DNA of 64,000 bases from a virus (lineage: Duplodnaviria; Heunggongvirae; Uroviricota; Caudoviricetes), in the IMG/VR virus record IMGVR_UViG_3300035701_000015, positions 12,009 to 76,008 of that record, one strand, 5' to 3'. Position numbers and translations under genes: made by a program. The notes beneath the pieces are model-generated. The model worked only from the letters and a program-made list of their open reading frames with translations, had not been told where the DNA came from and ran no database searches. Positions 3,231 to 55,005 of the stretch are shown one piece after another (positions within the stretch are counted from its first letter, which is position 1; every line of letters begins with the position of its first letter).

Positions 3231-3303
3231 GTCTCCGTAGCTCAATGGCAGAGCGGCTGCCTCTAAAGCAGTGTCAGTGAAGGTTCAAGTCCTTTCGGAG
3301 ACC
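3231..3303 (+). tRNA. putative amber-suppressor tRNA (anticodon CTA)
   Basis: Acceptor gtctccg/cggagac, D-arm gctc-aatggca-gagc, anticodon arm gctgc-ctCTAaa-gcagt, T-arm gaagg-ttcaagt-ccttt. Confidence 0.5.
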
Positions 3304-11894: not shown

Positions 11895-12143
11895 ATGGAC
11901 GAGAATAAACTAAAGAAGTTGAAGTCTATCAACTACAAAGTCAAAAGCTGTTGCGGTATGTGTGCTTACAGTAAGTTTAAGAATAGAGATTATTGGGGAA
12001 TTTGCAGAGCACATAAATATAAGCACGAAAAGCATACGGACTCGGCAAGACAGCTTTCAATTTATTGTTTTGGTAGTTGTCCTTACTTCAAAGTCAGTCA
12101 ATATTTCAAAGACGATTTGGGAGTATGGACTGAATTCTTATAA
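11895..12143 (+). CDS. Cys-rich small protein
   Basis: CCGMC...C...CFGSC. Confidence 0.45.
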   Translation: MDENKLKKLKSINYKVKSCCGMCAYSKFKNRDYWGICRAHKYKHEKHTDSARQLSIYCFGSCPYFKVSQYFKDDLGVWTEFL

Positions 12144-25497: not shown

Positions 25498-25821
25498 ATG
25501 AAGTTTAGAAAAGCCACTAACGACGAAGCAACAGGCACTCACCAAACGGGTATATTGCACACAGACTATCATAAAATAGTTAGTGTATTTGGTGAGCCCG
25601 AAGAAAGTAATTCAGATAAAATTCAAGTGGAATGGATTTTAAAATTTGAAGATAGAACTATAGCTACTGTATATGATTATAGAGCAATAAGAATTCCTGA
25701 AAAAAATAAAGATTGGTACATCGGCGGAAAAAACAAAAAATCTGTATATTATGTACTTGCTCTTGTTTTAAAACATTATAGAGCTTTAATAAAAGATGTA
25801 TTTGAGGCTAATTTAAAGTAA
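25498..25821 (+). CDS. hypothetical protein
   Basis: ORF. Confidence 0.45.
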   Translation: MKFRKATNDEATGTHQTGILHTDYHKIVSVFGEPEESNSDKIQVEWILKFEDRTIATVYDYRAIRIPEKNKDWYIGGKNKKSVYYVLALVLKHYRALIKDVFEANLK

Positions 25822-33303: not shown

Positions 33304-36168
33304 ATGGCGAATAAGAAAAACTTAAGTCAAACTTTAAACGATTTGGGTATAAAAGCTAAGAAAATTACTTTGGGCTCTTTATTAGTAGAAAGCGGAATTT
33401 CTGAAGCAGCTGAAGAAGAGCTTGAAGAAGACTTGATAGAACCTACACAAGAAGAGCCTGAATTCGTATTGCCTGAAATACCTACAGGTGAACCCGAAAT
33501 AGATCCTTTAGTTGTACAAGGATTAGAAACTGCTGATGATGCTTTTAAAAAAGAAGAAGAAGAAAGACCGATCGTTGATAAATTTATCTATGAAACTGAG
33601 TGGTTCGAGAAATATGACTTTGCTAGTCAAAATTTAGGTATCATAGATCACGGACTAAATGCTGGATTAGACAAACTAGTTATTAAAACCTCATTGAGAA
33701 TAACTGACCCACTTGGCTCAATAGTTGACGAGGGTCCGATTTTAGATCAGATACACTTGTATGAAAACAAACAATATGGAATTGGTTTCATTCCTCTAGA
33801 TGAAAATCACGTTAAAATATTAACAGCTAAAGATGGAGTAATATGGTCGTCTTCAAGTGGAGAGGGATTAGATCTTCGTCTTATAGAAAATATTGAATCT
33901 TCTATAGGCAAAGTAGAATACAAAATAACTTTTCACAAAATGATCTCAGATCTTTCTAAGCAACTATTAGAAGACATAGAAAAAGGAAAGAATGCTCCTA
34001 GTTCGGGCGGATTAGCAATTTATTCTGGACCGGCCGGGGTCCCTGGACCTCCAGGAGCACCGGGACCTTCTGGTGTAACCGATGTTCAGGATAAAAATAT
34101 TCTCTATGTTAGAGCGAAAGGAAATGATAGCGGAAATGATGGTAGTATAACTTTTCCTTATAAAACAATTAAAGCTGCGATTGCATCTATCGTAGCACCT
34201 TCAAGAGCTAACTCTTTTATCGTCGATGTTGGTCCTGGTGAGTTTACAGAAGACAACTCAGCAGGTGCAATAGGTATTCCCAGCAGCACAACTTTAAAAG
34301 GACAGTTTAAAAATATCAGCCATATTACTGGATCAGACGTTTCTAAAGCTTTATTCTATTTAAATGATCACTGTGGTTTAGACAATGTTACTCTTTATGG
34401 TATTACAAGCAATTCTGCTATAGTAGCTGATCAAGCTGACAGCATGAGTACCCTCAAAGACATTGAGATTGAAGATTGCCAGAATGGCATTGAAACTAAT
34501 AACATTACTGCTGTAGTAGATATTTATAACATTACTGCTCTTGGAACTATAACTAATCTATTTAAAGTTGGGCCAGGAAGAGTCAGAGCTAGGAGCATTG
34601 TAATACGAAGCAATACAACTGTAGAAACGATTTTCAGAGTTAATGGCTCTGGTGCTAATCTTCATACTTGGGGCACTATTAGTTATTCGCCTAGTGTGAC
34701 AAATGGCGTTTATGTAACAAACAATGGTATTTCACATAACGTCAATACAGAAATCAACAACGCAAACTATGGACTCAGAGTTGCTACTGGCGGTTATGCT
34801 TATGGGTCTTCTTTCTTCTTGGATAGCACTATCTGGAATATATGGCAAGAAGACTCTACTGGTATTGTAGAACTAGACAGTGGAAGCTTTGAAGGTAAAA
34901 AGATAAAAGCAGCAGATTGGTCTAAAATAAATATTAGCTATATCAACTTAACAGTTGGAAATGAGGGCCAAAATATATCTCAAGAACTTCACGTAGGAGT
35001 ACCAGAAAAAGGGAACTCTACCTCGCTTGGAGAAGGTCCTCCTATATCTAGAGGTATGTTAATTTATAATTATAATGGTAGTACTTACACTGATGTGACC
35101 ACAGAAGCTTCAGATCCTACAACTGGAACTTTTACTTTAGGAACCTCTCTAAATAATGCTATTTACATATCTAGTGATCTAAAAGATTTAACAACGAGTG
35201 ATTATACAAAATTCTTAGGAGTACATTTGAATATTACTCAGGCTTTCAATTTGGGTGCTGGCTCTATGGTTTGGGAATATTGGGATGGGTCATCTTGGAC
35301 TCCTTTCACAGTAATGAGAAGCCAAGCATTATATCCTTATTTACCGTTTAGCAATAAAGATCCCATCCTTTTAGGAGATGGTCAGTTTCAAATACGATTC
35401 AACATAGAACTGATTAAGTCAGGCACAGGATCTTGGTCTAAAAATGATCCACCAAGTACTGGAACTAATAGGCATTGGGTCAGATATAGAGTATCTTCCG
35501 GAATCACTCAAGGAATCATAGTTCAACAAATTAAACTTCATACTAATACTGCTAAATTTCACGAAGACGGTTGGCTGACTTTCTTTGGAACAGCAAGACC
35601 CGTTAGTGTATTATTCTGGGACGCTGGTTTATTTCAACCCTTCGGCGGATCTACACCTGCAGATCAAGATTTATTCATTAGCGACAACTTGGGTGTTGGA
35701 AGAATAGAAAACCTTTTTGCTAACGGAGCTTCAGATAGAGTAGGTTTGACTTCTAATTTACCATTGGATTGCGATGTCAGTTGTCCGATAGTGTTCCAAT
35801 GGTCTTGGGTAGCCAGTACGAATAGTGCAAATACTATAAACTGGATAATTCGGTATGGGTATAGTACTGATGGAGATTCGATTCACTTTACTACTGGTGC
35901 AGCTCCAACAACAGGGCCTAATGAGCTAGCTATACCGTTAAACGTGACAAACACTACAGCTGAAGTCCAAGTCACAAGCTCAGTCTTTCTAAATATTAGT
36001 AATACAGTTTCCAGAAGATCGGGTGGAATTGGAGATACTCTTTGGGCAGTAATCGAAAGAGATGGTGGCGGAGACACTTATGCTGGAAATGTTGCACTCA
36101 TAAATGTAACTGCCAAATATTTCAAATGGTGCGATGGTGGACACATTGACTTATTGATGTCTGTGTAA
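33304..36168 (+). CDS. tail fiber/tailspike-like protein with collagen-like repeat
   Basis: 954 aa; acidic N-terminus; GPAGVPGPPGAPGPSG; long Asn/Thr/Gly/Ser-rich beta-rich region consistent with a beta-helix. Confidence 0.55.
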   Translation: MANKKNLSQTLNDLGIKAKKITLGSLLVESGISEAAEEELEEDLIEPTQEEPEFVLPEIPTGEPEIDPLVVQGLETADDAFKKEEEERPIVDKFIYETEWFEKYDFASQNLGIIDHGLNAGLDKLVIKTSLRITDPLGSIVDEGPILDQIHLYENKQYGIGFIPLDENHVKILTAKDGVIWSSSSGEGLDLRLIENIESSIGKVEYKITFHKMISDLSKQLLEDIEKGKNAPSSGGLAIYSGPAGVPGPPGAPGPSGVTDVQDKNILYVRAKGNDSGNDGSITFPYKTIKAAIASIVAPSRANSFIVDVGPGEFTEDNSAGAIGIPSSTTLKGQFKNISHITGSDVSKALFYLNDHCGLDNVTLYGITSNSAIVADQADSMSTLKDIEIEDCQNGIETNNITAVVDIYNITALGTITNLFKVGPGRVRARSIVIRSNTTVETIFRVNGSGANLHTWGTISYSPSVTNGVYVTNNGISHNVNTEINNANYGLRVATGGYAYGSSFFLDSTIWNIWQEDSTGIVELDSGSFEGKKIKAADWSKINISYINLTVGNEGQNISQELHVGVPEKGNSTSLGEGPPISRGMLIYNYNGSTYTDVTTEASDPTTGTFTLGTSLNNAIYISSDLKDLTTSDYTKFLGVHLNITQAFNLGAGSMVWEYWDGSSWTPFTVMRSQALYPYLPFSNKDPILLGDGQFQIRFNIELIKSGTGSWSKNDPPSTGTNRHWVRYRVSSGITQGIIVQQIKLHTNTAKFHEDGWLTFFGTARPVSVLFWDAGLFQPFGGSTPADQDLFISDNLGVGRIENLFANGASDRVGLTSNLPLDCDVSCPIVFQWSWVASTNSANTINWIIRYGYSTDGDSIHFTTGAAPTTGPNELAIPLNVTNTTAEVQVTSSVFLNISNTVSRRSGGIGDTLWAVIERDGGGDTYAGNVALINVTAKYFKWCDGGHIDLLMSV

Positions 36169-37513: not shown

Positions 37514-37945
37514 ATGCAAACATTCTTACCATACGGTGATCCAGTACGAGTCGCTAAAATCCTTGACACAAGACGTCTCGGCAAACAGCGAGTCGAAACA
37601 ATAGAGATAGCTCGTAAATTACTAGAGATCAGTAAAGGCAAAGGCTATACAAATCATCCCGCAGTAAAAATGTGGAAAGGACACGAAGTCTACCTCATCA
37701 AAATATATCTTCGAGCTATGCTTGATGAATGGAACACCCGTGGATTCAAAAATGAAAAATGTGAAGAACACTATAAAGAACTTTATCGTATGGTAGTAGC
37801 AAGACGAGCTGTTCAACCTCGGTGGTTCAGCGAACCAGTCTTCGAATCACATCGATCGAGACTCATTCAGAAAGACCCAAGTTTTTATAAACCGCTATTT
37901 CCCGGCACACCAGATAATCTCGAGTATATCTGGCCCGAAGCTTAA
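37514..37945 (+). CDS. conserved hypothetical protein
   Basis: N-terminus MQTFLPYGD...AKILDTRRLGKQRVE. Confidence 0.5.
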   Translation: MQTFLPYGDPVRVAKILDTRRLGKQRVETIEIARKLLEISKGKGYTNHPAVKMWKGHEVYLIKIYLRAMLDEWNTRGFKNEKCEEHYKELYRMVVARRAVQPRWFSEPVFESHRSRLIQKDPSFYKPLFPGTPDNLEYIWPEA

Positions 37946-38744: not shown

Positions 38745-39095
38745 ATGAATCGACTCGGATGCCATATCTTGGTCGACGTGTATGGTTGTGATTTTGATGA
38801 AATCAATAACGAAGAACTCGTCACCGGAATAATGATCGAAGCCGCTAAGATAAGTGGCGCTACTATTGAAAATGTCAGCGCTAAAAAGTTCCAACCACAA
38901 GGGCTGACAGTACTAATACTAATCTCAGAGTCTCACCTTTCTTTCCACTCTTATCCTGAAAGTCAAATGTGCATGATAGATATCTTCACTTGTGGAGATC
39001 ACACGTTTCCAGAAAAGGGAGTAGAATATATTCTATCTAAACTAAAACATGAACACTTTGAATGCAACATAATCGAACGAGGCAAGCTTTTCTAA
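38745..39095 (+). CDS. speH: S-adenosylmethionine decarboxylase proenzyme, SpeH type
   Basis: 116 aa with ISESHLSFHSYPE, the pyruvoyl-forming Ser context. Confidence 0.6.
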   Translation: MNRLGCHILVDVYGCDFDEINNEELVTGIMIEAAKISGATIENVSAKKFQPQGLTVLILISESHLSFHSYPESQMCMIDIFTCGDHTFPEKGVEYILSKLKHEHFECNIIERGKLF

Positions 39096-39555: not shown

Positions 39556-39694
39556 AGTCTGGCTTAAGTTTTTCTTATTCGCCGACTTAAATAGCTCACG
39601 ATAGCACCTTAGTTTTCACTAATTAACAAGGTATTTACCTCAATAAAAACAAAGATAATATCAAAGGCCTAAATTGGCATTGAGGAGATATAAA

Positions 39695-42100
39695 ATGAGT
39701 TGGAAAAATTTGATAGGCTCTATTAAGGAAGAAGTTAATCAAGACTCTCCTATAATTAAAAAGAGCAAAAAACAAGGAATACCTTTATTCGAAAAATTAG
39801 CCAGAGAGCTAGTTGATGACAGGATAGATGAAATAGATATTAAAGGTGCTGTAAAGAAAGTTGGAGTAGTTATAAAAACTGGATGGCAAAAGCTGACGGG
39901 CAAAATTAAAGAAGTTGCTATGAGAGGTTTTAAATTCGGAGTTGCCGTTGGTAAGACAGTAGCGAATAAATTTGTATTATTCAACAAAGCTGGAGAAATA
40001 TTGACTCCTCCTGCAGACAATGCGCAAATAAAGCCTATAGCTTCTGGTAAGAAAACATTGACGCTTACTTATAAAAGTAAAGCTGGTCCAATGGATATTC
40101 ACATGGGCGATCTTCTCAAGATGGGCTTTGGTACTCAGATAGACAAAAACGGTATTGGCATCTTCTATGTTGTTGAGCCTAAAGTTGCTGGAGTACAAGA
40201 GGGAATAGACTATAAGGCATCTGAAATTCTTTTAGAAGATAGAGAAAAAGAAAAAGAAGAACTTGCCGCTATGTCTGAAATAGATAAATTAGTATTTGGC
40301 TCATTTTCTGGTGAAGGAGCTCAAGCTTTAAAATCTTCTTCAGAAATGCCAACTAAAGCTGCACCAGTAGCAGTTAATTATGATGACTTTCAAAAAGAAT
40401 TAAACGATCTTCTGAAGAGAGTAAAAGAGGGAATAGTTCTTAAAAATAGTAAAATAAAAACTCTTGCAATTTATGCACCTACTGGGTGGGGAAAATCAGA
40501 AATCATAGAGCATACGGCAAAAGCTGCTGGATACCATTATTTTCCAATAGAGCTTCAGAAAGTTGATATAAACATTATTCAGGGCTTTCCATATCTAGAA
40601 GATGTTGAAGCCGCTGATGACGCAACGAAAGAAGATAGATTACGAAGAGCGATCAAAATAGTAAAGATTGCTCCATCTGAACACTTACCACCATCTGAGC
40701 ATCCGGGAAACTGGTTACTATTCTTTGACGAGTTCAATAGAGCAGACACCGAAAAGATGTCGGCAGTTATGAACTTATTACTAACTGGTGAGCTTGGTGG
40801 TGCTGCTAATTTAGTTCGAGATAAAAAGACTGGTGAAAAGAAACTTGATAGATATAGATTACCAGAAAAAACGGTAGTACTTCTGGCAATGAATACTGGA
40901 ATGCAGAAAAACATTTCAGATGCAATGAACGCAGTAAAAGACTTAGACATTGCAACTCTTGAAAGAGTTCACAGAGTACTCCAAGGAAAATATCATGGAC
41001 CAAGCTGGTTCAAGAATTTTGCAGCAAAATCTTTTATAGCGGAAACGAAAGCGGGTCACAAAGTACCCATACTATCAAGAATTCCTCCAATTATATTACA
41101 CTATATCAATCAAGAGATGAGAACTAAAACGGGCATTGATCCTGAGAAACCTTTCTTAATTCCAGTAAAAGTAGCATACGATGAGAAAGGCGAATCTCTT
41201 GGAGGCGGCGGTGAAAGAACGACTTCCCCAAGAGCTTGGACAATTATAGCAGACACTATGATTGAACAAGGTATCGATCAATGGAACTCATTAAGTGATG
41301 AGTCTAAAAAGAAATATATGAAAGACGCTGAAAAAATTAAGAAACAAATAGAAGAGAAGGGTATTACTGATAAAGAAGGAAATAAAGTAAAACTTCCAGA
41401 AAAAGTTGAAGATTATCTATTTGCCGCTTGGGTCAATGATGCTAGAAATCAAGTGAAGCTTCTGGCAAATCAATCACCAGAGCTCGGTGACGAGGGAATG
41501 GAACTTATAGGTAAAATGATAAGATCTTTCATGAGGAAAGGGAGAGAAGGTATCAGCGATGAAGATGTTCTATTAAACTACAAAGCTATTAGAGAGCAAG
41601 TCAAGAACAATTTTACAAATCTTGGGTTTGGAACTAAAGCAAATTTACTTGCCAGATTATTTATGGCTCTATCTAAATTCAAAAATGAAAAGCAAGTTAC
41701 AGATTATATGGAAGACAAGAGTATTCCTCTTCTTTCTAAGCAAGGATTAATTGAACAGTTATTTCAAACTATCAAGGCTCTATACAAAGACTTAGATTTT
41801 GCTCCAGATGAGTTTGCTTCATTCACACACTTAGTGGAAGAAGCCGCTAAGAAGGGCGACAATGAGCTACTTAGATCATTGCACCAGAAGATGGCTGGCA
41901 AATGGGAAGTCTATTTAGACAACATAAGAAAGAAGTTGCAGACTAAGAGTCAAGTAGAAAAAGAGCTTGAAAAAATAGCAGGCGGTAAAGGTAAGGCTGG
42001 CGAGAAAGGTGAAGAAGGTGAAGAAGGCGAGAAAGGTGAAGAAGGTGAAGAAAAGAAAAACGAAGATATTAGAAACTTTTTGAGAGGCTTGAAACTCTAA
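39695..42100 (+). CDS. MoxR-like AAA+ ATPase (AAA_5) with long C-terminal extension
   Basis: Walker A APTGWGKSE, Walker B/sensor LLFFDEFNRAD, LLLTGELGG; C-terminal GE[KE]GEEGEE repeats. Start trimmed to the ATG after GAGGAG. Confidence 0.6.
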   Translation: MSWKNLIGSIKEEVNQDSPIIKKSKKQGIPLFEKLARELVDDRIDEIDIKGAVKKVGVVIKTGWQKLTGKIKEVAMRGFKFGVAVGKTVANKFVLFNKAGEILTPPADNAQIKPIASGKKTLTLTYKSKAGPMDIHMGDLLKMGFGTQIDKNGIGIFYVVEPKVAGVQEGIDYKASEILLEDREKEKEELAAMSEIDKLVFGSFSGEGAQALKSSSEMPTKAAPVAVNYDDFQKELNDLLKRVKEGIVLKNSKIKTLAIYAPTGWGKSEIIEHTAKAAGYHYFPIELQKVDINIIQGFPYLEDVEAADDATKEDRLRRAIKIVKIAPSEHLPPSEHPGNWLLFFDEFNRADTEKMSAVMNLLLTGELGGAANLVRDKKTGEKKLDRYRLPEKTVVLLAMNTGMQKNISDAMNAVKDLDIATLERVHRVLQGKYHGPSWFKNFAAKSFIAETKAGHKVPILSRIPPIILHYINQEMRTKTGIDPEKPFLIPVKVAYDEKGESLGGGGERTTSPRAWTIIADTMIEQGIDQWNSLSDESKKKYMKDAEKIKKQIEEKGITDKEGNKVKLPEKVEDYLFAAWVNDARNQVKLLANQSPELGDEGMELIGKMIRSFMRKGREGISDEDVLLNYKAIREQVKNNFTNLGFGTKANLLARLFMALSKFKNEKQVTDYMEDKSIPLLSKQGLIEQLFQTIKALYKDLDFAPDEFASFTHLVEEAAKKGDNELLRSLHQKMAGKWEVYLDNIRKKLQTKSQVEKELEKIAGGKGKAGEKGEEGEEGEKGEEGEEKKNEDIRNFLRGLKL

Positions 42101-42930
42101 TGAAAAATTTGTTCCAAGTAATATTAGAAGCACAACAAAGCGATCAACCTACACAAGCTGAGTTAGAGCAATATAGAGAGAAGTTGCAAGCTAGTAAGAC
42201 TAGTATACCAAGATCGATTGCAGCAATTAAACCGCATCTTTTTAATACAGGAGAATATGAACTCTATGAGTTCATAGAAAACTGTGAGTTTTGGAAAGTT
42301 CAAAATAAAAATGGTCCAGGCTGGCATGCAACTGCTGGCGTTAGAGTGGGATCGAATAAAATAGAATTTTATTATGATGAAGAGTTTCTAGATAAATTGG
42401 CAAAGAAGCCGGGTCAATTAATATTCTTGATAGGACATGAAGCTTCTCATATTCTGAGATTCCACATAGACAGATCAGTCGCTGCAAATCAAGAAGCAAG
42501 CTTAGCGAATGTAGCACAAGATATGATTATTAATGACGATATATTATTGACTGACAAAGTAGCTGGTTGGAAGCCAGAAATGATAACTAAATCTACTGTT
42601 ATGGAATTAGCTAAGGGTGAGAAAGACGGAGCTTTTGCTCATTCAATTCCAGATAAATTCAGACAAGATTTTAAAGAAGTTGGACGAAAAGCTTATTATT
42701 CAGAAAATATGTACAACTGGCTAAATGCTAATCCAAAAGAAAAAGAAAAAGTGACGGGTCCTGGAGCTCCACAAGAAGTAGATTATTTTGAAAAAGGTTC
42801 ATTAGTAAAAGTAAATAGCGGCCCGCATAAGGGCGAATATAGAAGAATAACTGAAGTCAATAAAGATGGAACTTACGAAACTGAGCCAGTTGATATACAA
42901 GCTGAAATAGAAAAGGTTAAGGGCAAATGA
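42100..42930 (+). CDS. putative zinc metallopeptidase domain protein (HExxH)
   Basis: GHEASHILRFH. Confidence 0.5.
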   Translation: MKNLFQVILEAQQSDQPTQAELEQYREKLQASKTSIPRSIAAIKPHLFNTGEYELYEFIENCEFWKVQNKNGPGWHATAGVRVGSNKIEFYYDEEFLDKLAKKPGQLIFLIGHEASHILRFHIDRSVAANQEASLANVAQDMIINDDILLTDKVAGWKPEMITKSTVMELAKGEKDGAFAHSIPDKFRQDFKEVGRKAYYSENMYNWLNANPKEKEKVTGPGAPQEVDYFEKGSLVKVNSGPHKGEYRRITEVNKDGTYETEPVDIQAEIEKVKGK

Positions 42931-44207
42931 ATATAAAATCTTTATTAGAAACTCTTGAAAATAGAGTTTTATTAGAACAAAAGGAAACGTTCAAACAAGG
43001 CGAACTTACTCCAGTAATCATCAATCCTCCAACTGGTACCCCGTCGCCACTACCACCACAGCAAGGTGGAAAACAAATAGACGTAGAAGTAATAGATACG
43101 GGTAAGCCACCTCCTAGTAAAGGAGCAGGGGCAAGTAAGCCTGGTGAAACTAGCGGTAAAGAAACTAAGAAAACAGATAAGCCTGGTGAAGGCGAAAAAA
43201 AAGCCGCTGCTTCACCAACAATAGATTCTCACGAAATTTTTAATAAATCAGATCCATCTGAAGCTAAAGAGATGGCAGAAAAGATCCTTGAGAAAGCTGA
43301 GGCAGAAAGAAAAGAAAGAGGTGAAGATTTAGAGAAATCTGCTGGAGAAGGTGCTGGCAATTTTATGGATAAGCTCAGAGATATTCACAAACCAAGAATA
43401 AATTGGTCAGTTGAGTTAAAGAGAAAGCTCACGGAATTCAAATCTAGAACATCTACAGCTATAAATAGATACTCTAAAAAGAAAGCAGAGAAATACAAAG
43501 AAGGCGAAGGAGTAGTAAAATCAAAAGCCTATCATCAATGGTTGAGAGATCCAAGGTCTCATGGTGGTAGCAAAATACTCTTCAAAGGACCTTATGTAAA
43601 AGCTCCGATAGGTGAAGTCATATTGATAGTTGCTCTAGATACTTCTGGATCTATTCCAGAAAGTACGATTGGTAAAGTATTTGCTGAAATGGATAAAATA
43701 GCAACGAATTTCAAAAGAGGACTTACCCATGGCGGAGTAAGCATGGAAGGCAAAGTCTACTTCATGACTTGGGACTCAGCAGTAGCTTCTGTTGATGAAT
43801 ATAAGCCTGGAGAATGGAGAAAATATAAAGAGGGCACGAAGAAAATCAAAGGTGGCGGAGGAACAGACCCAAGTAGTATATTCGATTATTTAAAGAAGCA
43901 TACTTTATTCGATAGGGAGAAACCAACTGCGGCTTTGCTTAATATACTGAAAGAACCAGCTCCAACGGGAATGAGTAAGCACGATATAGTAATTCCCGTT
44001 AAAGGCGGTTCTGAGAGTCCTTCAGCTGTTATGTCTCCTTTCTTGTTAATAGCTACAGACGGTTTCTTCTTTGGGAAAGTAAATGATGCAGATTTAGGTT
44101 TGTTATACAAAGATAATGAAAAGAACATACTCTATTTAGTTATAGATGGGCAGACACAAGATTGTTATCCTAAAAACGTAATAGTGTATGAATCAGTAAG
44201 AGCATAA
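42927..44207 (+). CDS. vWA domain protein
   Basis: MIDAS VALDTSGSI; acidic/low-complexity N-terminal region. Confidence 0.55.
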   Translation: MNIKSLLETLENRVLLEQKETFKQGELTPVIINPPTGTPSPLPPQQGGKQIDVEVIDTGKPPPSKGAGASKPGETSGKETKKTDKPGEGEKKAAASPTIDSHEIFNKSDPSEAKEMAEKILEKAEAERKERGEDLEKSAGEGAGNFMDKLRDIHKPRINWSVELKRKLTEFKSRTSTAINRYSKKKAEKYKEGEGVVKSKAYHQWLRDPRSHGGSKILFKGPYVKAPIGEVILIVALDTSGSIPESTIGKVFAEMDKIATNFKRGLTHGGVSMEGKVYFMTWDSAVASVDEYKPGEWRKYKEGTKKIKGGGGTDPSSIFDYLKKHTLFDREKPTAALLNILKEPAPTGMSKHDIVIPVKGGSESPSAVMSPFLLIATDGFFFGKVNDADLGLLYKDNEKNILYLVIDGQTQDCYPKNVIVYESVRA

Positions 44208-44225
44208 ATCATGGAGGTTAATGTG

Positions 44226-44660
44226 ATGGAAATCAGAAAATTCCTCGAAGAAATGGAAAACAAAGGTAGTCTTCTTTTCGAAGAGGGAAAAGAGGGAGAT
44301 AAAATAAATCCCCAGATGAAAAAGGCTTTACAGTCTGCTGGCGTCAAAGCTCAGTGGATTTATCAGCCCGAAGGATATGACTTAGTCGTAATGGAGCACG
44401 ATAAAGACGGCGAGAAGAAAGATAGTTGGTCTATGGCATTCTTCACAGAAGCTGAACTCGGTGGTGAAGAAGGTGAGCAGATTTTCAAGGAAAACTTGAA
44501 TGAAGCTGAAGTCGGTATGAAGATGGTCGATCAAGTCAAGGGAAATTTTCTCGATATCGTTCAGCTAGCAATTGAAGTTGCTTCTAATAAGAAATACAAG
44601 AAAGGTTTCTCTTCTCAGCTAGTAAAGCAGGCAACGTCTGCATCTAAGTCGAAGAAATAA
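44226..44660 (+). CDS. hypothetical protein
   Basis: Start set after GGAGG. Confidence 0.45.
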   Translation: MEIRKFLEEMENKGSLLFEEGKEGDKINPQMKKALQSAGVKAQWIYQPEGYDLVVMEHDKDGEKKDSWSMAFFTEAELGGEEGEQIFKENLNEAEVGMKMVDQVKGNFLDIVQLAIEVASNKKYKKGFSSQLVKQATSASKSKK

Positions 44661-44682
44661 TTGATCTTTTAAATATTTTGAA

Positions 44683-44934
44683 GTGGAGGTGGTGGCGGTG
44701 AAAGAAACAGAATATCAAGAACAGCTGTGGGACATTGAACTGCAAGAGAGGAGATTCAATTTAAGCTATCAGAAAATAGCAAGGAAACACGAGAAGATTG
44801 ACATGATGCTGAAAGTCATTTCTACTCTGTCTCAAGGTTTTGTTGCTGACAAAAAACTTAAAGATGATGCTCTCGATAAAGCAGCTAAAGTGTTGAATAA
44901 AGAATTAGAAACCTACAAATCTGACATTGCTTAA
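44683..44934 (+). CDS. hypothetical protein
   Basis: GTG start. Confidence 0.4.
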   Translation: MEVVAVKETEYQEQLWDIELQERRFNLSYQKIARKHEKIDMMLKVISTLSQGFVADKKLKDDALDKAAKVLNKELETYKSDIA

Positions 44935-44939
44935 GCAAA

Positions 44940-44969
44940 GGCTCCTCTTTACTGAGAGGAGCCTTTTTG
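44940..44969 (+). terminator. rho-independent terminator
   Basis: ggctcctct-ttactg-agaggagcc followed by TTTTTG. Confidence 0.7.
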
Positions 44970-44980
44970 TTGGAGATTAG

Positions 44981-45439
44981 ATGTTAAAATTAGTTAGTCC
45001 ACAAAAAGCTATAAAATTGTGCAAAGATGTGACTGATATAGAAACATTAATAAAATTGGGTGGCGATCTACTTTTTAACAATATATTAGAAATATGTCAT
45101 AAATCTCAGGGAGTAGGCTTAGCTGCTCCCCAAGTTGGTATTTATTATAAATTCTTTATAGCTTATCTGCAAGAGTATAATAATTTCGGGGTTTATGTCA
45201 ATCCTAAGTATAGACCCCTCTCTGACCAAACAGTTGAGTCAATCGAGAGTTGTTTGACACATGGTAAAGATAAACCATATAAAATTAAAAGGTATCATAA
45301 AATTTTAGCTGAATGGCAAGATATTGGACTTGTAAAAAAGATACAAGAGTTGAATGGAATGTCAGCGATAATTTTCCAGCATGAAACAGATCATATTAAT
45401 AGTATAACTATAGCTTCTATCGGAGAACTAAATGTATAA
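44981..45439 (+). CDS. def: peptide deformylase
   Basis: GVGLAAPQVG, ESCLT and QHETDHI motifs. Confidence 0.65.
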   Translation: MLKLVSPQKAIKLCKDVTDIETLIKLGGDLLFNNILEICHKSQGVGLAAPQVGIYYKFFIAYLQEYNNFGVYVNPKYRPLSDQTVESIESCLTHGKDKPYKIKRYHKILAEWQDIGLVKKIQELNGMSAIIFQHETDHINSITIASIGELNV

Positions 45440-45965
45440 TATAACAGATAAATTAATTCACCTAAATCAATATACTAGATCAGGTAAACCATTGTCTAGA
45501 GTTTGTAGTCTAGTAGTTCATTGGACAGGTTTAGCGAGTGGAAGCAATAATGGACTATTCAATTGGTTTGATAAAGTTTCTGTTGAGACACAAAGGTACG
45601 GTTCAGCACATTATGGAATCGACAAGACAAGCATTTACAGATTTATTCCCGATAATGAAATAGCTTACCATGTTGGAGCTTCTAAATATACTGAATTTGC
45701 CAAAAAGAAATTTTGCGATCAGTATCCCAATCAATATTCTCTGGGAGTCGAATTAAATCCTGAATTCGCTAATGGTGAATTTCACGAAGAAGTATTGAAC
45801 AGAGCAGTTTGGTTGTTTGCTGAATTGTGCAAAATTTACAACTTGAATCCCATGTGTGAAATTATTAGACACTATGATGTGACGGGAAAAGATTGTCCAA
45901 AGTTGTTTATTGATCACACTGAGAAATTCTTGCTCTTCAAAGAACAAGTCAAGGAAGCAATGTGA
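45432..45965 (+). CDS. N-acetylmuramoyl-L-alanine amidase (amidase_2, PGRP/T7-lysozyme-like) endolysin
   Basis: VVHWTG...AHYGID...YHVGAS...GVEL...IIRHYDVTGKDCP. Confidence 0.65.
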   Translation: MYNITDKLIHLNQYTRSGKPLSRVCSLVVHWTGLASGSNNGLFNWFDKVSVETQRYGSAHYGIDKTSIYRFIPDNEIAYHVGASKYTEFAKKKFCDQYPNQYSLGVELNPEFANGEFHEEVLNRAVWLFAELCKIYNLNPMCEIIRHYDVTGKDCPKLFIDHTEKFLLFKEQVKEAM

Positions 45966-46249
45966 TGTTTGGTTTTCATGAGCTTTTCACTCCAGACGGT
46001 CTAGCATTTTTGATTTTTGAATTCGATAAAGATAAATATGATGTTTGGGATGTAGGAGATGGGTCTTTCGATATTAAAGTCAAAAAAGTATTATTTTGTA
46101 ATAACAAAATTTGTCCAAAAACTGTAAACCTATCACAAGGGGAACTCAGTGAACTTACACATAACGACCTACATAAGTTGTCGCATATTATTATAGACAG
46201 GATTTTTCTAACTACTAGCGTATATCAAAGACTTAGGTCGCATAAATAA
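45962..46249 (+). CDS. hypothetical protein
   Basis: ORF. Confidence 0.4.
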   Translation: MMFGFHELFTPDGLAFLIFEFDKDKYDVWDVGDGSFDIKVKKVLFCNNKICPKTVNLSQGELSELTHNDLHKLSHIIIDRIFLTTSVYQRLRSHK

Positions 46250-46342
46250 CATATCTTGTGGTTAAGCTTTCGCCGTTAAAAACATACAAATAGTTTCGAT
46301 GCTTCTATATAATGTAAGTAAAATCTTTCGTAGGAGCGCAAC

Positions 46343-47479
46343 ATGACTGTTAAGGAAATCAAGCAGGCTCTTGATTTAATTCTTCTGAAGTCGCCACAAG
46401 TTATCACTCCTTATATTCATGGAAAGCCTGGAGTAGGGAAGTCAGCGATTACTCATCAAATCGCTGAAACCAGAGATATCGGTTTCATCGATCTCAGACT
46501 GTCTCAACTTGAAAGTTCAGACATTCGGGGTATTCCAACTCCCGATCATAAGAACGGAAGTTCTCGGTGGCTTCCGCCAGAAACTATCCCGTTCGAAGTT
46601 TTCGAGAATTTGCCTATACCCAGCGACCCAAAAGGACGAAAGTTTTCTAACGGCGGGATCCTTTTCCTCGACGAAATCAACCGAGCACGTTTCGATGTTC
46701 TGCAATCAGTCTTCGAGTTGGTTTATGACCGCAGAGTTGGATTGCACAAGATTCTCGATAATTGGTTCATCGTATGTGCAGGAAACCTCGGTGAAGCAGA
46801 CAAGACAGAAGTTACCGAATTCACTGATGCAGCTCTCAATAATAGGTTCATCCATTTCTATGTAGAAGACCAGGGCCTCTTTGACTGTTGGGTCGAATGG
46901 GCAGAGAAAGAAGGCAATGTTCATTTCGACGTTGTAAATTTTATCAAGACGAAACCTTCAGCTCTTTACACCGAATGCAAAGACGACGATGTAATTTATT
47001 GCACTCCTCGAACTTGGGATAAATTTTCTCAGATACTCAAACAGAATACCGAAAAAGATCCTTCAGATATTACGAAGATAATCGGTAAGAGCATGCTCGG
47101 ACCTACAGCAGTGGGCTTCTTAGACTATCTGAGACAAAAATCAAAGATCTCACCTGAAGATGTTGTGCTTCGGTACCAGAATGCTGAAATTAAAAAGAAA
47201 GTCAAGAACCTTTCTCGAGATGAGAAGTATTCTTTATCGAACGAGATCACCAATTATATTTCTCAACACAGAAGTATGGACGACAAGAAGATCGGCAACA
47301 TTCATGAGTTTATTAGCAAAGAACTCGAAAAAGATCACATGATCGCCATTTACAAAGTTCTCGTAAATATTCCTATAAAGTATAATAACAAAGAACAAGA
47401 ATTCATGGCAGTTTATCTCGATCTTTATCCCGAGTTCAACGCCAAAATCGCTTCTATTTTGAGAGAGAGCCATGCCTAA
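46343..47479 (+). CDS. MoxR-like AAA+ ATPase (AAA_5), second copy
   Basis: HGKPGVGKSA, ILFLDEINRA. Confidence 0.6.
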   Translation: MTVKEIKQALDLILLKSPQVITPYIHGKPGVGKSAITHQIAETRDIGFIDLRLSQLESSDIRGIPTPDHKNGSSRWLPPETIPFEVFENLPIPSDPKGRKFSNGGILFLDEINRARFDVLQSVFELVYDRRVGLHKILDNWFIVCAGNLGEADKTEVTEFTDAALNNRFIHFYVEDQGLFDCWVEWAEKEGNVHFDVVNFIKTKPSALYTECKDDDVIYCTPRTWDKFSQILKQNTEKDPSDITKIIGKSMLGPTAVGFLDYLRQKSKISPEDVVLRYQNAEIKKKVKNLSRDEKYSLSNEITNYISQHRSMDDKKIGNIHEFISKELEKDHMIAIYKVLVNIPIKYNNKEQEFMAVYLDLYPEFNAKIASILRESHA

Positions 47480-48860
47480 AAACGTAATGCCAGAAAAGAT
47501 TTCGAATATTTGTGTAAGATGGCAAGACGGTTCTACTTGCCCATTCTTCGCCGAGTTCCTTCTGAGATTTAGGTATCGCGAAGATAAAGCTTGTTCAACA
47601 GTTGGTATAGCTTTTAACAAACATAGTAAATTAGAGCTTGTATACAACTCTGAATTCCTTGATAAGTTGACTCCGACAGAGGTTGAAGCCGTCTGTGTAC
47701 ACGAAATAATGCATGTGCTCCATAAGTTCGACGATAGATTAGGAACTAGATTTTTCGATCTCTTCAACGTAGCTCAAGATGCTTGTGTCAATAAAATCGT
47801 AAACGAAACCATAATAGGTAATAGACAACTTCAGATTCCAAAAGGTGGAGTAGACTTTGCGGAGATACAGAAGATGGGTTATAAAGGAGAAGCAATTTCT
47901 GAACCCGTCTATGATTTCTTAGAAAAGAAAGCTGAGAAGATTTATATTGTTTCAACTGGTGCAGATGGCCAACAAGGCGAGGGAGATAACACTTGTCCAA
48001 ATTGCGGAGGAAGTGGTAAAGCAGATAACGATAGCGATGGTAATGGTCAAGGCGAAGGAGATGGAAAATCTGGTTCGAAAAAAGGTAAGTCTGGGCAAGG
48101 AGATGGGAAAGAACAAAAAGAATGCCCAGTGTGCGGCGGATCTGGAAAACTACACGGTAAGAAAATACTTCGCACAACTGATGACCACACTCAAAGAAAA
48201 GAGAAGCTTACCGAAATTGAGAAAGCCATTATTGAAGATGTAATCAACAATGCTCGAACCCGTTCATGGGGCACAATGAGCGGTAATATGCAGAGCACGA
48301 TCACAGAACTAATTAAAACTAAAAGAATTCCGTGGCAACAAAAATTAGCTATGATCATGTCGAGATATGTGCATCAGTCAGGTAACGTTTATGAAAATAC
48401 ATGGTCTCGCAGAAACCGAAGAAGCTTACCACTTCCCGGAATACGAAAGATGTCGAAGAAGATAGTAGTTACTGTAGACACTTCTGGAAGTGTTTCAGAC
48501 TATGATATTAAGATGTTCTTCGGTCAGATTGAAAAGATTGTAAAAGACTTTTCTCAAATGACTTTGATACAATGGGACACAATTGTTCAAGGTGTAGAAC
48601 TTTATAAAAAGGGCGCTTGGAAGAAAATCAAAGTAAAGGGTCGTGGAGGCACTGATCCCCAAAAGTTGTATGATCTTCTCAACAGAGATTACTCTGACGT
48701 TTCAGCTGTAGTGAATTTCACAGATTCGTTTTTTGATTGGGGGTTCAAGTATTACGGCATCAATACAATTTGGGCCGTTATCAACAACCCAAATTTCAAA
48801 GCTCCTTTCGGTCAAACTATTATTATAGACAAACCAGAAAGAAGCGACCGGAGAGTATAA
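47472..48860 (+). CDS. HExxH metallopeptidase + zinc ribbons + vWA fusion protein
   Basis: VHEIMHVLH; CPNCGGSGK and CPVCGGSGK; MIDAS VTVDTSGSV. Confidence 0.55.
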   Translation: MPKNVMPEKISNICVRWQDGSTCPFFAEFLLRFRYREDKACSTVGIAFNKHSKLELVYNSEFLDKLTPTEVEAVCVHEIMHVLHKFDDRLGTRFFDLFNVAQDACVNKIVNETIIGNRQLQIPKGGVDFAEIQKMGYKGEAISEPVYDFLEKKAEKIYIVSTGADGQQGEGDNTCPNCGGSGKADNDSDGNGQGEGDGKSGSKKGKSGQGDGKEQKECPVCGGSGKLHGKKILRTTDDHTQRKEKLTEIEKAIIEDVINNARTRSWGTMSGNMQSTITELIKTKRIPWQQKLAMIMSRYVHQSGNVYENTWSRRNRRSLPLPGIRKMSKKIVVTVDTSGSVSDYDIKMFFGQIEKIVKDFSQMTLIQWDTIVQGVELYKKGAWKKIKVKGRGGTDPQKLYDLLNRDYSDVSAVVNFTDSFFDWGFKYYGINTIWAVINNPNFKAPFGQTIIIDKPERSDRRV

Positions 48861-49125: not shown

Positions 49126-49695
49126 ATGTCGTTGCAGATCAATAAAGCAGATATGGATCAAGCTTGGGTAGATAGGAAGAATAGCGATAAGTTCTATAAG
49201 TATCTCTATGACATCGCCAACCACCAAGTTTCTAAAAAAGGCATTGACTTTTATGAGCGATCTGAATATGTTCAATTTGCCGTGATGAAATGCTTTAAAC
49301 ATGAAGGTGCGTTCACACCGTCTAAGGGTGCTGCTTATTCTTTCTTCTGGAAACAAATTTCTTTGGCTATAGCTTACAAGCAAAGAAAAGAAGCTCGAAG
49401 AAATAACAAAGCTCGAACTTTTTATGTTGAACAAGAAAAAGTTCTTGACTGGATCGAGCGTGAGCACGAAAATAAAGGAGTACCTTTTTCTGAGATAGTG
49501 GGCATTGAAGAAGTTCTTAAAATTAAGCGTGCATTCAAGAGATATAATAACGAGCACAAATCTAAACTCAAGCCCAACAAAGAAAATACTGTCACAGTTC
49601 TTAAGTGGAACACAAAGAAAAATCCAGAATTTCTAAATGATTTCACCACACTAAAACACATCTTCGCGAGGTGGGTTGAGTGTCCCGCGAAATAG
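49126..49695 (+). CDS. hypothetical protein
   Basis: ORF. Confidence 0.5.
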   Translation: MSLQINKADMDQAWVDRKNSDKFYKYLYDIANHQVSKKGIDFYERSEYVQFAVMKCFKHEGAFTPSKGAAYSFFWKQISLAIAYKQRKEARRNNKARTFYVEQEKVLDWIEREHENKGVPFSEIVGIEEVLKIKRAFKRYNNEHKSKLKPNKENTVTVLKWNTKKNPEFLNDFTTLKHIFARWVECPAK

Positions 49696-52755: not shown

Positions 52756-55005
52756 ATGACGAAGAAAAACTTAATAGAATTTTTGCAGATGAGATCGAAA
52801 GAATTAAACAGCGAAGAGCAAACTTATTTAGCTGAAGAAATAAAAGCTCTCAAAACTCAAGAAGATGATCTCAAAAATCTTTTAAATTTAATAGATTCAA
52901 AGTCTAAATTAGAAAATCATAATAATGTTTTATCATTGTATCTTCTTGGCCTTTCTGAATATCCCAAAAAATTAAGACATTATTATTCGCTTGCCGATAT
53001 GGCCGATGTGGACATGGATTTTAGTCCCGACGGCCGCGACAAGATCAAAACATGGCTTAAAGAGAAATTCGGCGAAAAGAATTGTGTAAGCATTGGAACT
53101 TATGGAACTCTTGGTGTAAAAGGCTCAGTCCAAGAAATTTCTCGGGCTTATGGGATAAAGCCAAGTGAATACATTCAGATTAGCAAATTAGTTTCTGATG
53201 ACGACAAAGATTTAGACGTAGATGAAATCAGAGAGAAGTATCCCCAAGTAGAAGAGTTCCTTACCAATCATCCAGAAATTACTGATACCATCATAAAACT
53301 TATTGGAATGAAAAAGAATATTGGTCAACACGCTGGTGGTTTTGTTGTAAGCTCAGATAATGTATATGATAACATTCCAATTGTAAAAGCTAACAAGGGC
53401 GATGTTACTGGGTGGCAAGAATCTGGTGCTATAAAAGAATTAGAGGCACTTGGTTGGATTAAAGTTGATATTCTTGGTCTTTCTTGTGTAGAGCAAATCC
53501 GGTTATGTGTTGAAGAGATTAACCGAAAATATCCAGGAGCTATAAAAGGCGATCCATATCTTCTTCCTGTGGACGATCCCAAAGTATATGATTTTATTAA
53601 TACTCTTCAACTTGAAAACGTGTTTCAAATGGAGTCTAAAGTTTTCAAAGAAGCAGTAAGAATGATCCGACCGAGAAGCTTGCAAGATATATCAAACATT
53701 TCAACTTTGATTCGGCCTGGAGCAGCCTGCACCGTTGAAGAGTATAAGAAATCAGAGAATGTGAACTTCAAAGAAATTCCGAAATGTTTGCACAAAGTGT
53801 ATGACCACACTCGAGGATGGATGTTATACCAAGAACAGTTGTTACAAATATTAAAAGAACTTGGCGGATTTTCTATTTTCGAAGCTGACAAAGTTCGAAG
53901 ACTTGTAAGAAAGATCGGTAAAGCTAAAACTTCTGATGCAAATAGAAGTGATATGTTGAAAGAGACAGATAAGTATAAGACAATCTATCAGAAGCATGCA
54001 ACTACAAAAATAGTTGAAGAAGATAAGTGGCTTCAAGCGAAAGCTGAGAAATATGCCAATAGCCAATGGGAAGCGTTAATGGGTCAAGCAAAATATTCTT
54101 TCAACATGCCACATTCTTATGCATATTCTTTGATGGGTTATGTTCAAGCTTATCTTAAATGTTATTACCCCATAGATTTTTGGACTGCTGCATTAAATAC
54201 AATCACTAGAGGCTTAGAGAAGCACGGTGAAAGCAGTTTGGGTAAATATATAAACTCTATCGACTCAATGGGCATACCAATCGAAAAACCCAACGTGAAT
54301 AAGTCGGGTATAAATTTTGAAGGCGATGAGGGAAAAATCTATTTTGCTCTTAGCTATATCAAAGATGTTTCGAATGGTGCCGAAGAAGTCATGAAATATA
54401 GACCCTATGAAGATTGGGATGATTTCTTGAACAAAGCTGTTGAGAATAAAATTAATAAAAGAATAGCAAAAGGTTTGATCTTTTCTGGTGCTGTAGATTT
54501 TGAAGATGATATGGAAGCAAGAAGTTATAAGTGGGGTCTTTATCTGAAAGAAAAAGCTAAAGGCAAAAAGAACAAAGAAGAACTTGAAGAATACAAAAAT
54601 AACATGCCAGAGAAATATGAGCTCATACAAATGGAATATGAATATTGCAAATACAGTTTTACAGGCATCGATAAGTTTTTGCAGAGTTCAAAATATAAGA
54701 ATCTGACAACAATTTCTGACAGAGATAAAGCTAAAAAACTTTGGGTTCTTATTGGGTATATTTCTGACGTCGCAACAAAGAAAAGTAAAAAGTCTGGTAA
54801 TGAATATGTGCTAATAACTGTTACAGATTTCAGAGACGCAATAAGTGTTTATGCTTTTGGAGATGAATTTAGAAGTAAAATCCTCGGTACTTATAAAAAA
54901 GGCCAACTCATAAAGATTGGCGTTAAAAACGAATCTAATTGGCTCAAACTCCCTTTTGAAAACGAGTATAATCATTGTTTCCCAATAGAGATACTTTCAT
55001 CTTAG
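52756..55005 (+). CDS. dnaE: DNA polymerase III alpha (DnaE) C-terminal portion
   Basis: DMDFSPDGRD, GQHAGGFVV, FQMESK...LIRPG, GWMLYQEQLLQI, FNMPHSYAYSLMGY align to the DnaE core. Lacks the PHP domain. Confidence 0.7.
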   Translation: MTKKNLIEFLQMRSKELNSEEQTYLAEEIKALKTQEDDLKNLLNLIDSKSKLENHNNVLSLYLLGLSEYPKKLRHYYSLADMADVDMDFSPDGRDKIKTWLKEKFGEKNCVSIGTYGTLGVKGSVQEISRAYGIKPSEYIQISKLVSDDDKDLDVDEIREKYPQVEEFLTNHPEITDTIIKLIGMKKNIGQHAGGFVVSSDNVYDNIPIVKANKGDVTGWQESGAIKELEALGWIKVDILGLSCVEQIRLCVEEINRKYPGAIKGDPYLLPVDDPKVYDFINTLQLENVFQMESKVFKEAVRMIRPRSLQDISNISTLIRPGAACTVEEYKKSENVNFKEIPKCLHKVYDHTRGWMLYQEQLLQILKELGGFSIFEADKVRRLVRKIGKAKTSDANRSDMLKETDKYKTIYQKHATTKIVEEDKWLQAKAEKYANSQWEALMGQAKYSFNMPHSYAYSLMGYVQAYLKCYYPIDFWTAALNTITRGLEKHGESSLGKYINSIDSMGIPIEKPNVNKSGINFEGDEGKIYFALSYIKDVSNGAEEVMKYRPYEDWDDFLNKAVENKINKRIAKGLIFSGAVDFEDDMEARSYKWGLYLKEKAKGKKNKEELEEYKNNMPEKYELIQMEYEYCKYSFTGIDKFLQSSKYKNLTTISDRDKAKKLWVLIGYISDVATKKSKKSGNEYVLITVTDFRDAISVYAFGDEFRSKILGTYKKGQLIKIGVKNESNWLKLPFENEYNHCFPIEILSS

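Follow-up and report, generated by a model that had tools for sequence, protein, structure and literature searches.

A 64,000-nucleotide stretch of DNA from an uncultured large phage of the class Caudoviricetes (IMG/VR virus record IMGVR_UViG_3300035701_000015, positions 12,009 to 76,008; below, 'the window' denotes this entire stretch) encodes two modules, each consisting of a AAA+ ATPase of the AAA_5/MoxR-like type and an adaptor that combines a HExxH-containing, zincin-like domain with a von Willebrand factor A (vWA) domain. The best explanation of these genes, held here with moderate confidence, is that they encode two functional, non-redundant machines for ATP-driven remodeling and proteolysis, both of the phage MoxR-(zincin-vWA) type and differing in their client specificity. 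Module 2 is a textbook phage pair of the N4 gp24/gp25 type, that is, an AAA_5/MoxR-type ATPase and a fused protein made up of a DUF2201_N zincin, a DnaJ-type finger and a vWA domain. What is new is module 1, with its split adaptor, enlarged ATPase, KOW-like insert, companion protein U1 and discordant history, and its stable coexistence with module 2.

The two ATPase/HExxH/vWA modules had been proposed, at 39695-44207 and 46343-48860, in an earlier note made by inspection of the sequence. All the open reading frames (ORFs) in question are present on the plus strand at these coordinates, and in both modules the vWA partner adjoins the ATPase on the same strand, with the genes overlapping or abutting. 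The genes of the two modules and their principal motifs, all on the plus strand, are as follows (MIDAS, metal ion-dependent adhesion site).

39695..42100, plus: A1, the module 1 ATPase, 801 aa, from an ATG; equals the metagenomic protein P0001 exactly
40475-40498, plus: A1 Walker A, APTGWGKS
40718-40732, plus: A1 Walker B, LFFDE
42100..42930, plus: M1, the zincin half of the module 1 adaptor, 276 aa, with the N-terminal half of DUF2201_N; the A1 stop and the M1 ATG overlap (TAATG)
42436-42450, plus: M1 HEASH
42505-42534, plus: M1 NVAQDMIIN
42787-42894, plus: M1 conserved C-terminal KOW/SH3-like segment
42927..44207, plus: V1, the vWA half of the module 1 adaptor, 426 aa; overlaps M1 by ATGA
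43638-43652, plus: V1 MIDAS, DTSGS
43851-43868, plus: V1 GGGGTD
44049-44060, plus: V1 TD
44211..44660, plus: U1, conserved, 149 aa; starts 3 nt past V1
46343..47479, plus: A2, the module 2 ATPase, 378 aa; AAA_5 E-value 2.4e-6, phrog_1297 2e-69
46421-46444, plus: A2 Walker A, GKPGVGKS
46661-46675, plus: A2 Walker B, LFLDE
47472..48860, plus: MV2, the fused zincin-vWA protein of module 2, 462 aa; overlaps A2 by 8 nt
47700-47714, plus: MV2 HEIMH
47766-47792, plus: MV2 NVAQDACVN
47994-48146, plus: MV2, two CxxCGGSG motifs (CPNCGGSG and CPVCGGSG)
48477-48491, plus: MV2 MIDAS, DTSGS
48645-48656, plus: MV2 GGTD
48720-48725, plus: MV2 TD

Both modules, in the same order and with the gene for peptide deformylase (PDF) between them, are found in at least seven genomes, the window and six related contigs (L001, L005, L006, L008, L013 and L014; 48 to 278 kb long, with some locus ends out of view), here called the clade. 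The cassette, PDF included, is syntenic throughout, with the order denV, A1, M1, V1, U1, PDF, in some cases a lysis-type gene, A2, MV2, a conserved 190-aa protein, dCMP deaminase, dUTPase and the pieces of DnaE. Module 1 is likely to be functional and non-redundant with module 2 because its catalytic motifs are kept and both modules are retained across the clade.

Module 2 is a phage pair of the N4 gp24/gp25 type

The assignment of A2 to the AAA_5/MoxR-like ATPases, as made in the earlier note, is direct: the AAA_5 profile scores 28.1 bits, above the 22-bit gathering cut-off, and G27-S34, D110, E111, N148, R168 and R223, which represent Walker A and B, sensor 1, the arginine finger and sensor 2, show a conservation of at least 95% among 120 homologs. 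A search with tblastn detected the A2-type ATPase in 833 of the 50,697 deposited phage genomes, at one place in each, and these genomes include N4-like phages, rV5-like phages, Bacillus phage G and huge uncultured phages.

The fused partner MV2 matches DUF2201_N (1.3e-23, 84.5 bits), DUF2201 (1e-16, 61.6 bits) and phrog_1314 (4e-66), a family that carries the wrong name 'HNH endonuclease'. Among 61 homologs, H77, E78, H81, N99 and D103 are invariant, as are the MIDAS residues D336, S338, S340, T394 and D418. The N-terminal domain consists of a three-stranded sheet, the HExxH helix and a further helix bearing N99 and D103, and is zincin-like. SprT-like (Pfam) cross-matches occur in 5 of the 61 family members (best E-value 3.6e-6), and sub-significant matches to M48 and minigluzincin profiles fall on the HExxH helix; together with the Pfam membership and the invariant motifs, these matches support the peptidase assignment at the level of the sequence family. 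Sequence searches of the PDB returned nothing with single proteins and sub-significant matches with profiles, and an NCBIfam scan of the module proteins gave nothing meaningful.

The zinc ribbon that had been attributed to the module 2 fused protein is real as far as the cysteine motifs are concerned, but a DnaJ-type CxxCxGxG finger fits them better than a ribbon. Homologs carry 0, 2, 4 or 6 CxxCxGxG motifs at this position, Pfam DnaJ_CXXCXGXG is significant in 5 of the 61 family members (best 2.9e-8), the window MV2 not being among them, and family members also match Pfam Anti-TRAP and BSD2_CRD. These features speak for the chaperone-like reading, one of the two offered in the earlier note, which is the best fit.

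The same two-gene layout, an AAA_5 ATPase followed by a DUF2201_N plus vWA protein, with the same PHROGs (1297 and 1314), is seen in N4 gp24/gp25 (Schitoviridae) and in gp035/gp036 of Klebsiella phage KP8. The N4-type ATPase is 27-28% identical to A2 over ~90% of the ATPase, and dCTP/dCMP deaminase-type genes adjoin both pairs (in KP8, the order is ATPase, DUF2201 gene, dCTP deaminase, thymidylate synthase). Of the 14 genes that form the core of N4-like phages, two are N4 gp24 and gp25 (vWFA), which are of unknown function and are represented by middle transcripts (PMC4193335). The N4-type pair is single in each genome (833 records, 833 places), whereas here it is accompanied by a divergent second module, in an unrelated giant phage with more than 30 tRNAs. 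A MoxR AAA+ ATPase paired with a vWA protein that has a metallopeptidase fused to its N-terminus has also been described in group 2.2 jumbo phages, with a predicted role as chaperone and co-chaperone with peptidase (Iyer et al. 2021, PMC7824862). The domain architecture and the prediction of a chaperone plus peptidase are the same here, but the jumbo-phage pair is single and fused, whereas the window has two modules, one of them with a split adaptor, enlarged ATPase, KOW-like insert and U1, in an early/middle metabolic context. Module 1 follows the same order of ATPase and then zincin-vWA as both of these pairs, with weak PHROG scores, and forms a separate subfamily.

Module 1 combines an enlarged ATPase with a split adaptor

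A1, which probably does not begin at the TTG listed at 39674, consists of an N-terminal extension (approximately residues 1-225), the AAA+ core (225-430) and, at residues 512-745, a C-terminal helical region that is expanded, and its structure model (predicted local distance difference test score, pLDDT, 70.8) includes an N-terminal beta domain at ~70-160 that has no counterpart in A2. The profile matches of A1 are to phrog_1297 (1.8e-13) and, below the cut-off, AAA_5 (0.003). The AAA_5 cut-off is passed by the A1 ortholog in L013 (40.6 bits) and by the relatives P0275, P0282, P0284 and P0289 (27-37 bits), so that, in conjunction with the profile alignment to the A2 family discussed below, the AAA_5/MoxR-like assignment made in the earlier note extends to A1 by way of its family. 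Residues G264, G266 and K267, D345 and E346, N400 (sensor 1), R424 (arginine finger) and R513 (sensor 2) are invariant among 31 homologs.

When 1.84 billion representative proteins were searched exhaustively with a hidden Markov model (HMM) of A1, only 25 clusters were recovered at E<=1e-30, and a threshold of E<=1e-10 raised the number to 47. Given that a tblastn search of the deposited phages produced no match to A1, and at most weak matches to N4-like ATPases when a short-type relative of A1 was used as the query, the subfamily has no cultured representative. The short module-1-type ATPases (489-537 aa) lack the N-terminal extension and are encoded by other uncultured phages (L003, L007 and L010). 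In P0032, a distant 818-aa homolog of A1, an intein that contains a homing endonuclease (Pfam Hom_end, Hom_end_hint and LAGLIDADG_3) interrupts the ATPase.

In every genome of the clade, the zincin and vWA domains of module 1 are located on separate polypeptides. M1 matches DUF2201_N (1.1e-7, 32.3 bits against a cut-off of 23.2) at profile positions 42-119 and phrog_1314 (4.2e-9), with weak matches to KOW (0.0024) and Peptidase_M48 (0.0026). Both HExxH proteins, M1 and MV2, are above the DUF2201_N cut-off, and their placement in this zincin family supports, at the level of the sequence family, the metallopeptidase label that they had been given; for the ATPases and the vWA domains, the family assignment is confirmed. 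V1 is of low complexity at its N-terminus and then carries the C-terminal half of DUF2201_N and the vWA domain; its matches to DUF2201 (1.4e-4, 22.4 bits against 26.4) and to positions 136-244 of DUF2201_N (1.7e-4, 21.8 bits against 23.2) are slightly sub-threshold, and the match to phrog_1314 has an E-value of 7.1e-17. The HExxH, N/D and MIDAS residues are kept in M1 and V1 of all seven genomes, even at 23-33% overall identity.

Each of the short-type ATPases in L003, L007 and L010 is directly followed by a fused zincin-vWA protein of 527-560 aa, and the joined M1 and V1 sequences align colinearly with the fused 553-560-aa proteins of these loci. The shared features include the KOW/SH3-like segment GxIVKVNSGxHxGEYRxIT...VDI, at the end of M1, and the ELTPV motif, at the start of V1; the former sits roughly at the position of the zinc finger in module 2. 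Some relatives have two to four CxxCxGxG knuckles near the V1 N-terminus, whereas the window V1 is of low complexity in that region. The third gene of module 1, M1, is thus a product of gene fission of the usual fused zincin-vWA adaptor and no extra component. The split is real because the junctions and relative frames differ between genomes (overlap, gap, different frames), a gene is inserted at the junction in L008, and the M1 stop is TGA. On the same grounds, a frameshift, readthrough or an amber-recoding artefact as the source of the split is excluded. The inserted L008 gene (13331-13870) is a 179-aa cupin-like ORF. A fission this clean marks a point at which the adaptor tolerates cutting without loss.

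U1 and a shared N-terminal motif

U1, which has no match in Pfam, PHROG or NCBIfam, follows module 1 in all seven clade loci, and a distant homolog is encoded downstream of the short-type module of L010 (HMM E-value 4e-8), with a marginal one near that of L003. Across the nearer lineages it is 55-72% identical, and when these are compared with the window, U1 mostly has a higher identity than A1, M1 and V1. As for its role, U1 may be a fourth component of module 1, an adaptor or a client.

A1, M1, V1 and U1 share an amphipathic N-terminal motif, (K/R/N)x(F/L)(L/F)xx(L/I/M)(E/N)E, located within ~15 residues of the N-terminus in the window and up to ~25 in L013 and L014, in the divergent copies of which it persists. 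When position-specific scoring matrices (PSSMs), each built from the orthologs of one protein, were ranked over the 101 ORFs of the window, the V1 matrix placed U1 4th, the U1 matrix placed V1 2nd, and the M1 matrix placed V1 3rd and A1 4th. AT-rich 5' codon bias may contribute to the shared motif, which is suggestive only, a lead and no result.

The same amphipathic motif occurs in a 954-aa protein (33304-36168; KNLSQTLND), which has no Pfam or PHROG match, and in a 107-aa protein (2051-2374; RILLEKIEE). Three of the four PSSMs place both of them in the top 3-6 among the 101 ORFs; they are possible partners or clients, or else chance matches.

A speculative extension, to which a low probability is assigned, would make module 1 a four-protein machine of A1, M1, V1 and U1, in which the N-terminal amphipathic helices join the parts or deliver them to the ATPase, and the cassette is swapped among related giant phages as a specificity unit against variable host or virion proteins, for their ATP-dependent capture and cleavage. 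If this is the case, what had been an ordinary co-chaperone would, through fission and the docking helices, have become a protease that is driven by AAA+, modular and swappable.

Divergence and history of the two modules

The two modules are only distantly related to each other. A1 and A2 are 25% identical over 135 aa (E-value 3e-6), M1 and MV2 38% over 60 aa around HExxH (2e-7), and V1 and MV2 22-24% (BLASTP, 2e-10); alignment of the A1 and A2 families with hhalign gives a probability of 97.4% and an E-value of 1.3e-11 over 192 columns, with the sensor-2 motif TSPRxW / TPRxW. The module 1 HMM assigns ~1220 bits to its own family, ~300 to the three shorter relatives and 13-29 to module 2 types, and the module 2 HMMs score 290-520 bits against each other, so that the ATPases form two separate groups. 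A2 is 27-31% identical to ATPases of unrelated phages over ~90% of the length and 42-43% identical to those from Treponema metagenome-assembled genome (MAG) contigs, and because the cross-scores separate the groups, it is nearer to these phage and Treponema MAG ATPases than to A1. By these measures, module 1 is a deeply separate, rare subfamily of the same family, found solely in uncultured phages, and the modules are either ancient paralogs or separate acquisitions, which are indistinguishable, with recent duplication ruled out. The term 'paralogous', which the earlier note had applied to the two copies while leaving duplication and independent acquisition to be told apart, holds in the deep sense and fails in the sense of recent copies, in view of the ATPase and vWA identities above.

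Within the clade, A2, MV2 and the downstream protein D are 47-61% identical between lineages and are roughly equidistant in the identity matrices, with the window and L001 at 65-70% for A2 and MV2 but 60% for D. For A1, M1, V1 and U1, the identity between the L013/L014 lineage and the rest is 23-36%. The nearest relatives of the window also differ between genes: L008 for A1 and V1 (62 and 60%), L001 for U1, A2 and MV2 (72, 70 and 65%). In close genome pairs, the identities for module 1 and module 2 are, respectively, 71 and 71% (L005-L006) and 65 and 80% (L013-L014), and this similar divergence of both modules rules out uniformly faster evolution of module 1. The history of the module 1 cassette is discordant with that of module 2, and the pattern points to old allelic lineages with either recombination or episodic change in addition.

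Predicted function and alternative explanations

Under the proposed mechanism, each AAA+ ATPase, presumably hexameric, would act with an adaptor to which it is translationally coupled; the vWA domain of the adaptor, with its intact MIDAS, would capture a client protein, and the zincin (HExxH...N..D) would cleave it or, alternatively, would be switched on by the remodeling. Between the zincin and vWA domains, module 2 has a DnaJ-type zinc finger as its insert, whereas that of module 1 is a KOW/SH3-like barrel. This difference, along with the additional N-terminal domain of A1, probably gives the modules different clients, which would explain why both are retained throughout the clade. Module 1 is a rare derived form, with the adaptor split into M1 and V1, the ATPase doubled in size and U1 as a companion. 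Hexamers, client capture, proteolysis and distinct clients are what we infer, on the basis of the homology, motif conservation, fission, synteny and discordant divergence seen in the sequences.

The logic of MIDAS-mediated capture and ATP-driven remodeling is shared with RavA-ViaA, CbbQ-CbbO and NorQ-NorD, and the AAA+ core is similar to those of NorQ, CbbQ and RavA, and the vWA domain to that of NorD; these pairs, however, lack the zincin and the DnaJ-type finger and serve defined metabolic enzymes. The only viral MoxR-vWA pair with biochemistry is p618/p892, encoded by Acidianus two-tailed virus (ATV), with an ATPase activity that the vWA partner stimulates and with binding to virion proteins (PMC4124505), and by analogy with it, a role in virion assembly or processing has been proposed for the jumbo-phage pair (Iyer et al. 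2021, PMC7824862). The ATV pair, however, has no metallopeptidase domain and comes from an archaeal virus, with p618 present in the virion, whereas nothing here points to a virion location. The placement of the modules amid nucleotide-metabolism and replication genes, in a region of the early/middle type, and the middle transcripts of N4 gp24/gp25 point to action before or during assembly, not to a virion-structural role.

Several points weigh against the explanation of the modules as two protease machines with distinct clients. The window A1 itself scores 18.1 bits with AAA_5, under the 22-bit gathering cut-off, and both fold searches of the MV2 model are saturated by vWA matches, with essentially nothing else. 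The literature on DUF2201, N4 gp24/gp25 and phage MoxR gave genomic descriptions and no experimental function or proteolysis for the DUF2201-type pairs, the nucleotide-metabolism and replication context gives no support to the virion-assembly role found in that literature, and the case for different clients is drawn from the domain differences.

Among the alternatives, a conflict system, that is, module 1 or both modules as a counter-defense or host-takeover protease, or as a phage-borne relative of the MoxR-vWA ternary systems, would be consistent with the history of module 1 and U1, the discordance of which with the flanks is cassette-like, as is typical of loci for specificity or conflict, with the rarity of the subfamily (the 25 clusters recovered at the stringent threshold) and with the location of the genes in an early/middle region. 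It appears unlikely all the same, and the reading as an NTP-dependent ternary conflict system, the other one offered in the earlier note, did not hold up. The ternary systems of Kaur et al. 2020 share with the modules here the MoxR and vWA core and the presence of several divergent copies per genome, but they have a third core protein (VMAP, iSTAND), the order VMAP-MoxR-vWA and effectors fused C-terminally to the vWA protein (PMC7159879), whereas the modules here are phage-encoded, with the order ATPase-zincin-vWA and with the vWA domain ending the protein, there is no VMAP or iSTAND component and no effector, fused or in arrays, and M1 is one half of a split adaptor. PADLOC gave no significant match (E-value limit 0.01, best E-value 0.0013), and its weak matches identify no defense family. 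In N4-like phages, the module 2 type belongs to the core genes and is syntenic as a pair (PMC4193335), which a housekeeping role fits better. Furthermore, in the close genome pairs, module 1 diverges about like module 2, that is, without a uniformly accelerated, arms-race rate. The best-characterized MoxR-vWA pairs mature metalloenzymes, and the modules might similarly be chaperones for metal-cofactor insertion or maturation, like NorQ-NorD, CoxD-CoxE, CobS-CobT or BchI-BchD, with HExxH holding the metal instead of cutting peptides and PDF, for example, being served. This is distinctly improbable: although NorD and BchD are matched by the vWA model, all seven genomes have PDF between their modules and A2 weakly matches the CobS-like phrog_249 (2e-6), the 833 phage records with the module 2 ATPase include N4-like phages without PDF in the neighborhood, the family of the HExxH domain is one of zincin peptidases, with cross-matches to SprT-like and M48, chelatase-specific domains are absent, and the phrog_249 match has no stretch that passes alone and concerns an ATPase whose partner carries a zincin.

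A replication-associated protease similar to Cdc48-Wss1/SPRTN, in which the AAA+ ATPase would unfold DNA-trapped or crosslinked proteins for degradation by a SprT-like zincin, is very improbable. The SprT-like cross-matches (5 of 61 members), the genes for dCTP/dCMP deaminase, dUTPase, thymidylate synthase and polymerase that adjoin the pair here and in KP8, and the expression of N4 gp24/25 in the middle, that is, replication, phase (PMC4193335) are compatible with it, but Pfam-type scans of the module proteins and family members detected no DNA-binding domain, the neighborhood may merely reflect clustering of early/middle genes, and the vWA/MIDAS domain and DnaJ-type finger suit protein clients in general. 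That module 1 is a decaying, pseudogenized and frameshifted copy of module 2, as its weak HMM scores and the split zincin-vWA frame might suggest, is hardly credible. The catalytic motifs are invariant among homologs down to 23-33% identity, the ORFs are intact and full-length in seven genomes, with varied junctions and, in one case, a gene between the halves, fused and shorter relatives exist in other phages, and the genes are tightly translationally coupled, so that, given the conservation data, decay is effectively refuted.

The gene neighborhood

The window has a GC content of ~37%, and almost every gene is on the plus strand. Megablast of the region against the deposited phages yielded no nucleotide match, and a promoter and terminator scan of the region showed no enrichment compared with shuffled sequence. 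The other annotated features are as follows.

25808-26884, minus: radical-SAM lysine-2,3-aminomutase-like protein
37514-37945, 38745-39095 and 61139-62452: denV-type pyrimidine-dimer glycosylase, S-adenosylmethionine decarboxylase and CCA-adding enzyme
29704-31326: Ro60 gene, TROVE and vWA_Ro60
44981..45439, plus: PDF, Pep_deformylase 1.8e-26
45432..45965, plus: Amidase_2 endolysin, Amidase_2 3.7e-19, phrog_9611 7e-40
Between the modules, besides U1, PDF and the endolysin: a small ORF and a 95-aa ORF

As had been noted earlier, PDF and the endolysin lie between the modules, and the position of PDF is kept in all six relatives. The site between PDF and module 2 (45432-46249), occupied in the window by the endolysin and the 95-aa ORF, holds in five of the six relatives an unrelated, conserved protein of 263-289 aa with a HxxxD...HxH-like motif (for example, L001 16875-17672 and L013 9067-9930). 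This protein has no Pfam match and was not found in L008; its identity as an M23 peptidase was considered and dropped, Pfam having given no support. The lysis enzyme at this site may have been swapped by non-orthologous replacement.

Of the additional vWA proteins pointed out in the earlier note, the Ro60 gene was recovered as such. It is located a few kilobases upstream of module 1 across the clade (L001 4783-6429; L005 5664-7271; L013 1-483), and Rfam at the gathering threshold found no known Y RNA in the window, tRNAs being the sole matches. The vWA assignment of the protein at 20504-21259 stands only as a sub-threshold VWA match (E-value 3e-4); its PHROGs, 26613 and 7371, are of unknown function, and no adjacent AAA+ gene was recognized.

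ARAGORN predicts 32 tRNA genes (window 471-37157), among them a suppressor-type tRNA at 3231-3303 with the anticodon CUA, which reads UAG and is labeled Pyl by the program. TAG is the stop of 14 of the 101 crude ORFs, and none of the genes of the studied region relies on this tRNA; other parts of the genome may be partially recoded at amber codons.

Downstream of module 2, a 189-aa protein (49126-49695) without a family match is 54-63% identical in the relatives and was not detected in L008; it may resemble the small late sigma factors of phages (T4 gp55-like). DNA polymerase III alpha is encoded in pieces and in reversed order, with the finger/HHH/OB part (52756-55005) upstream of the PHP and N-terminal part (57221-58648), which terminates in an intein/HINT N-terminal splicing segment. 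DnaE of L013 is likewise in several pieces with Hint domains. The split DnaE could be a trans-splicing or a multi-subunit polymerase.

Implications

Few phage gene pairs that lack an experimentally established function are as widespread as the MoxR-(zincin-vWA) pairs. The present observations leave the general picture of the family unchanged and sharpen the testable hypotheses. The fast-diverging module 1 and U1 are a candidate for a host- or lineage-specific function, and the two diverged versions side by side, which differ in inserts, ATPase extensions, fused or split state and history, provide a natural contrast for the determinants of client choice.

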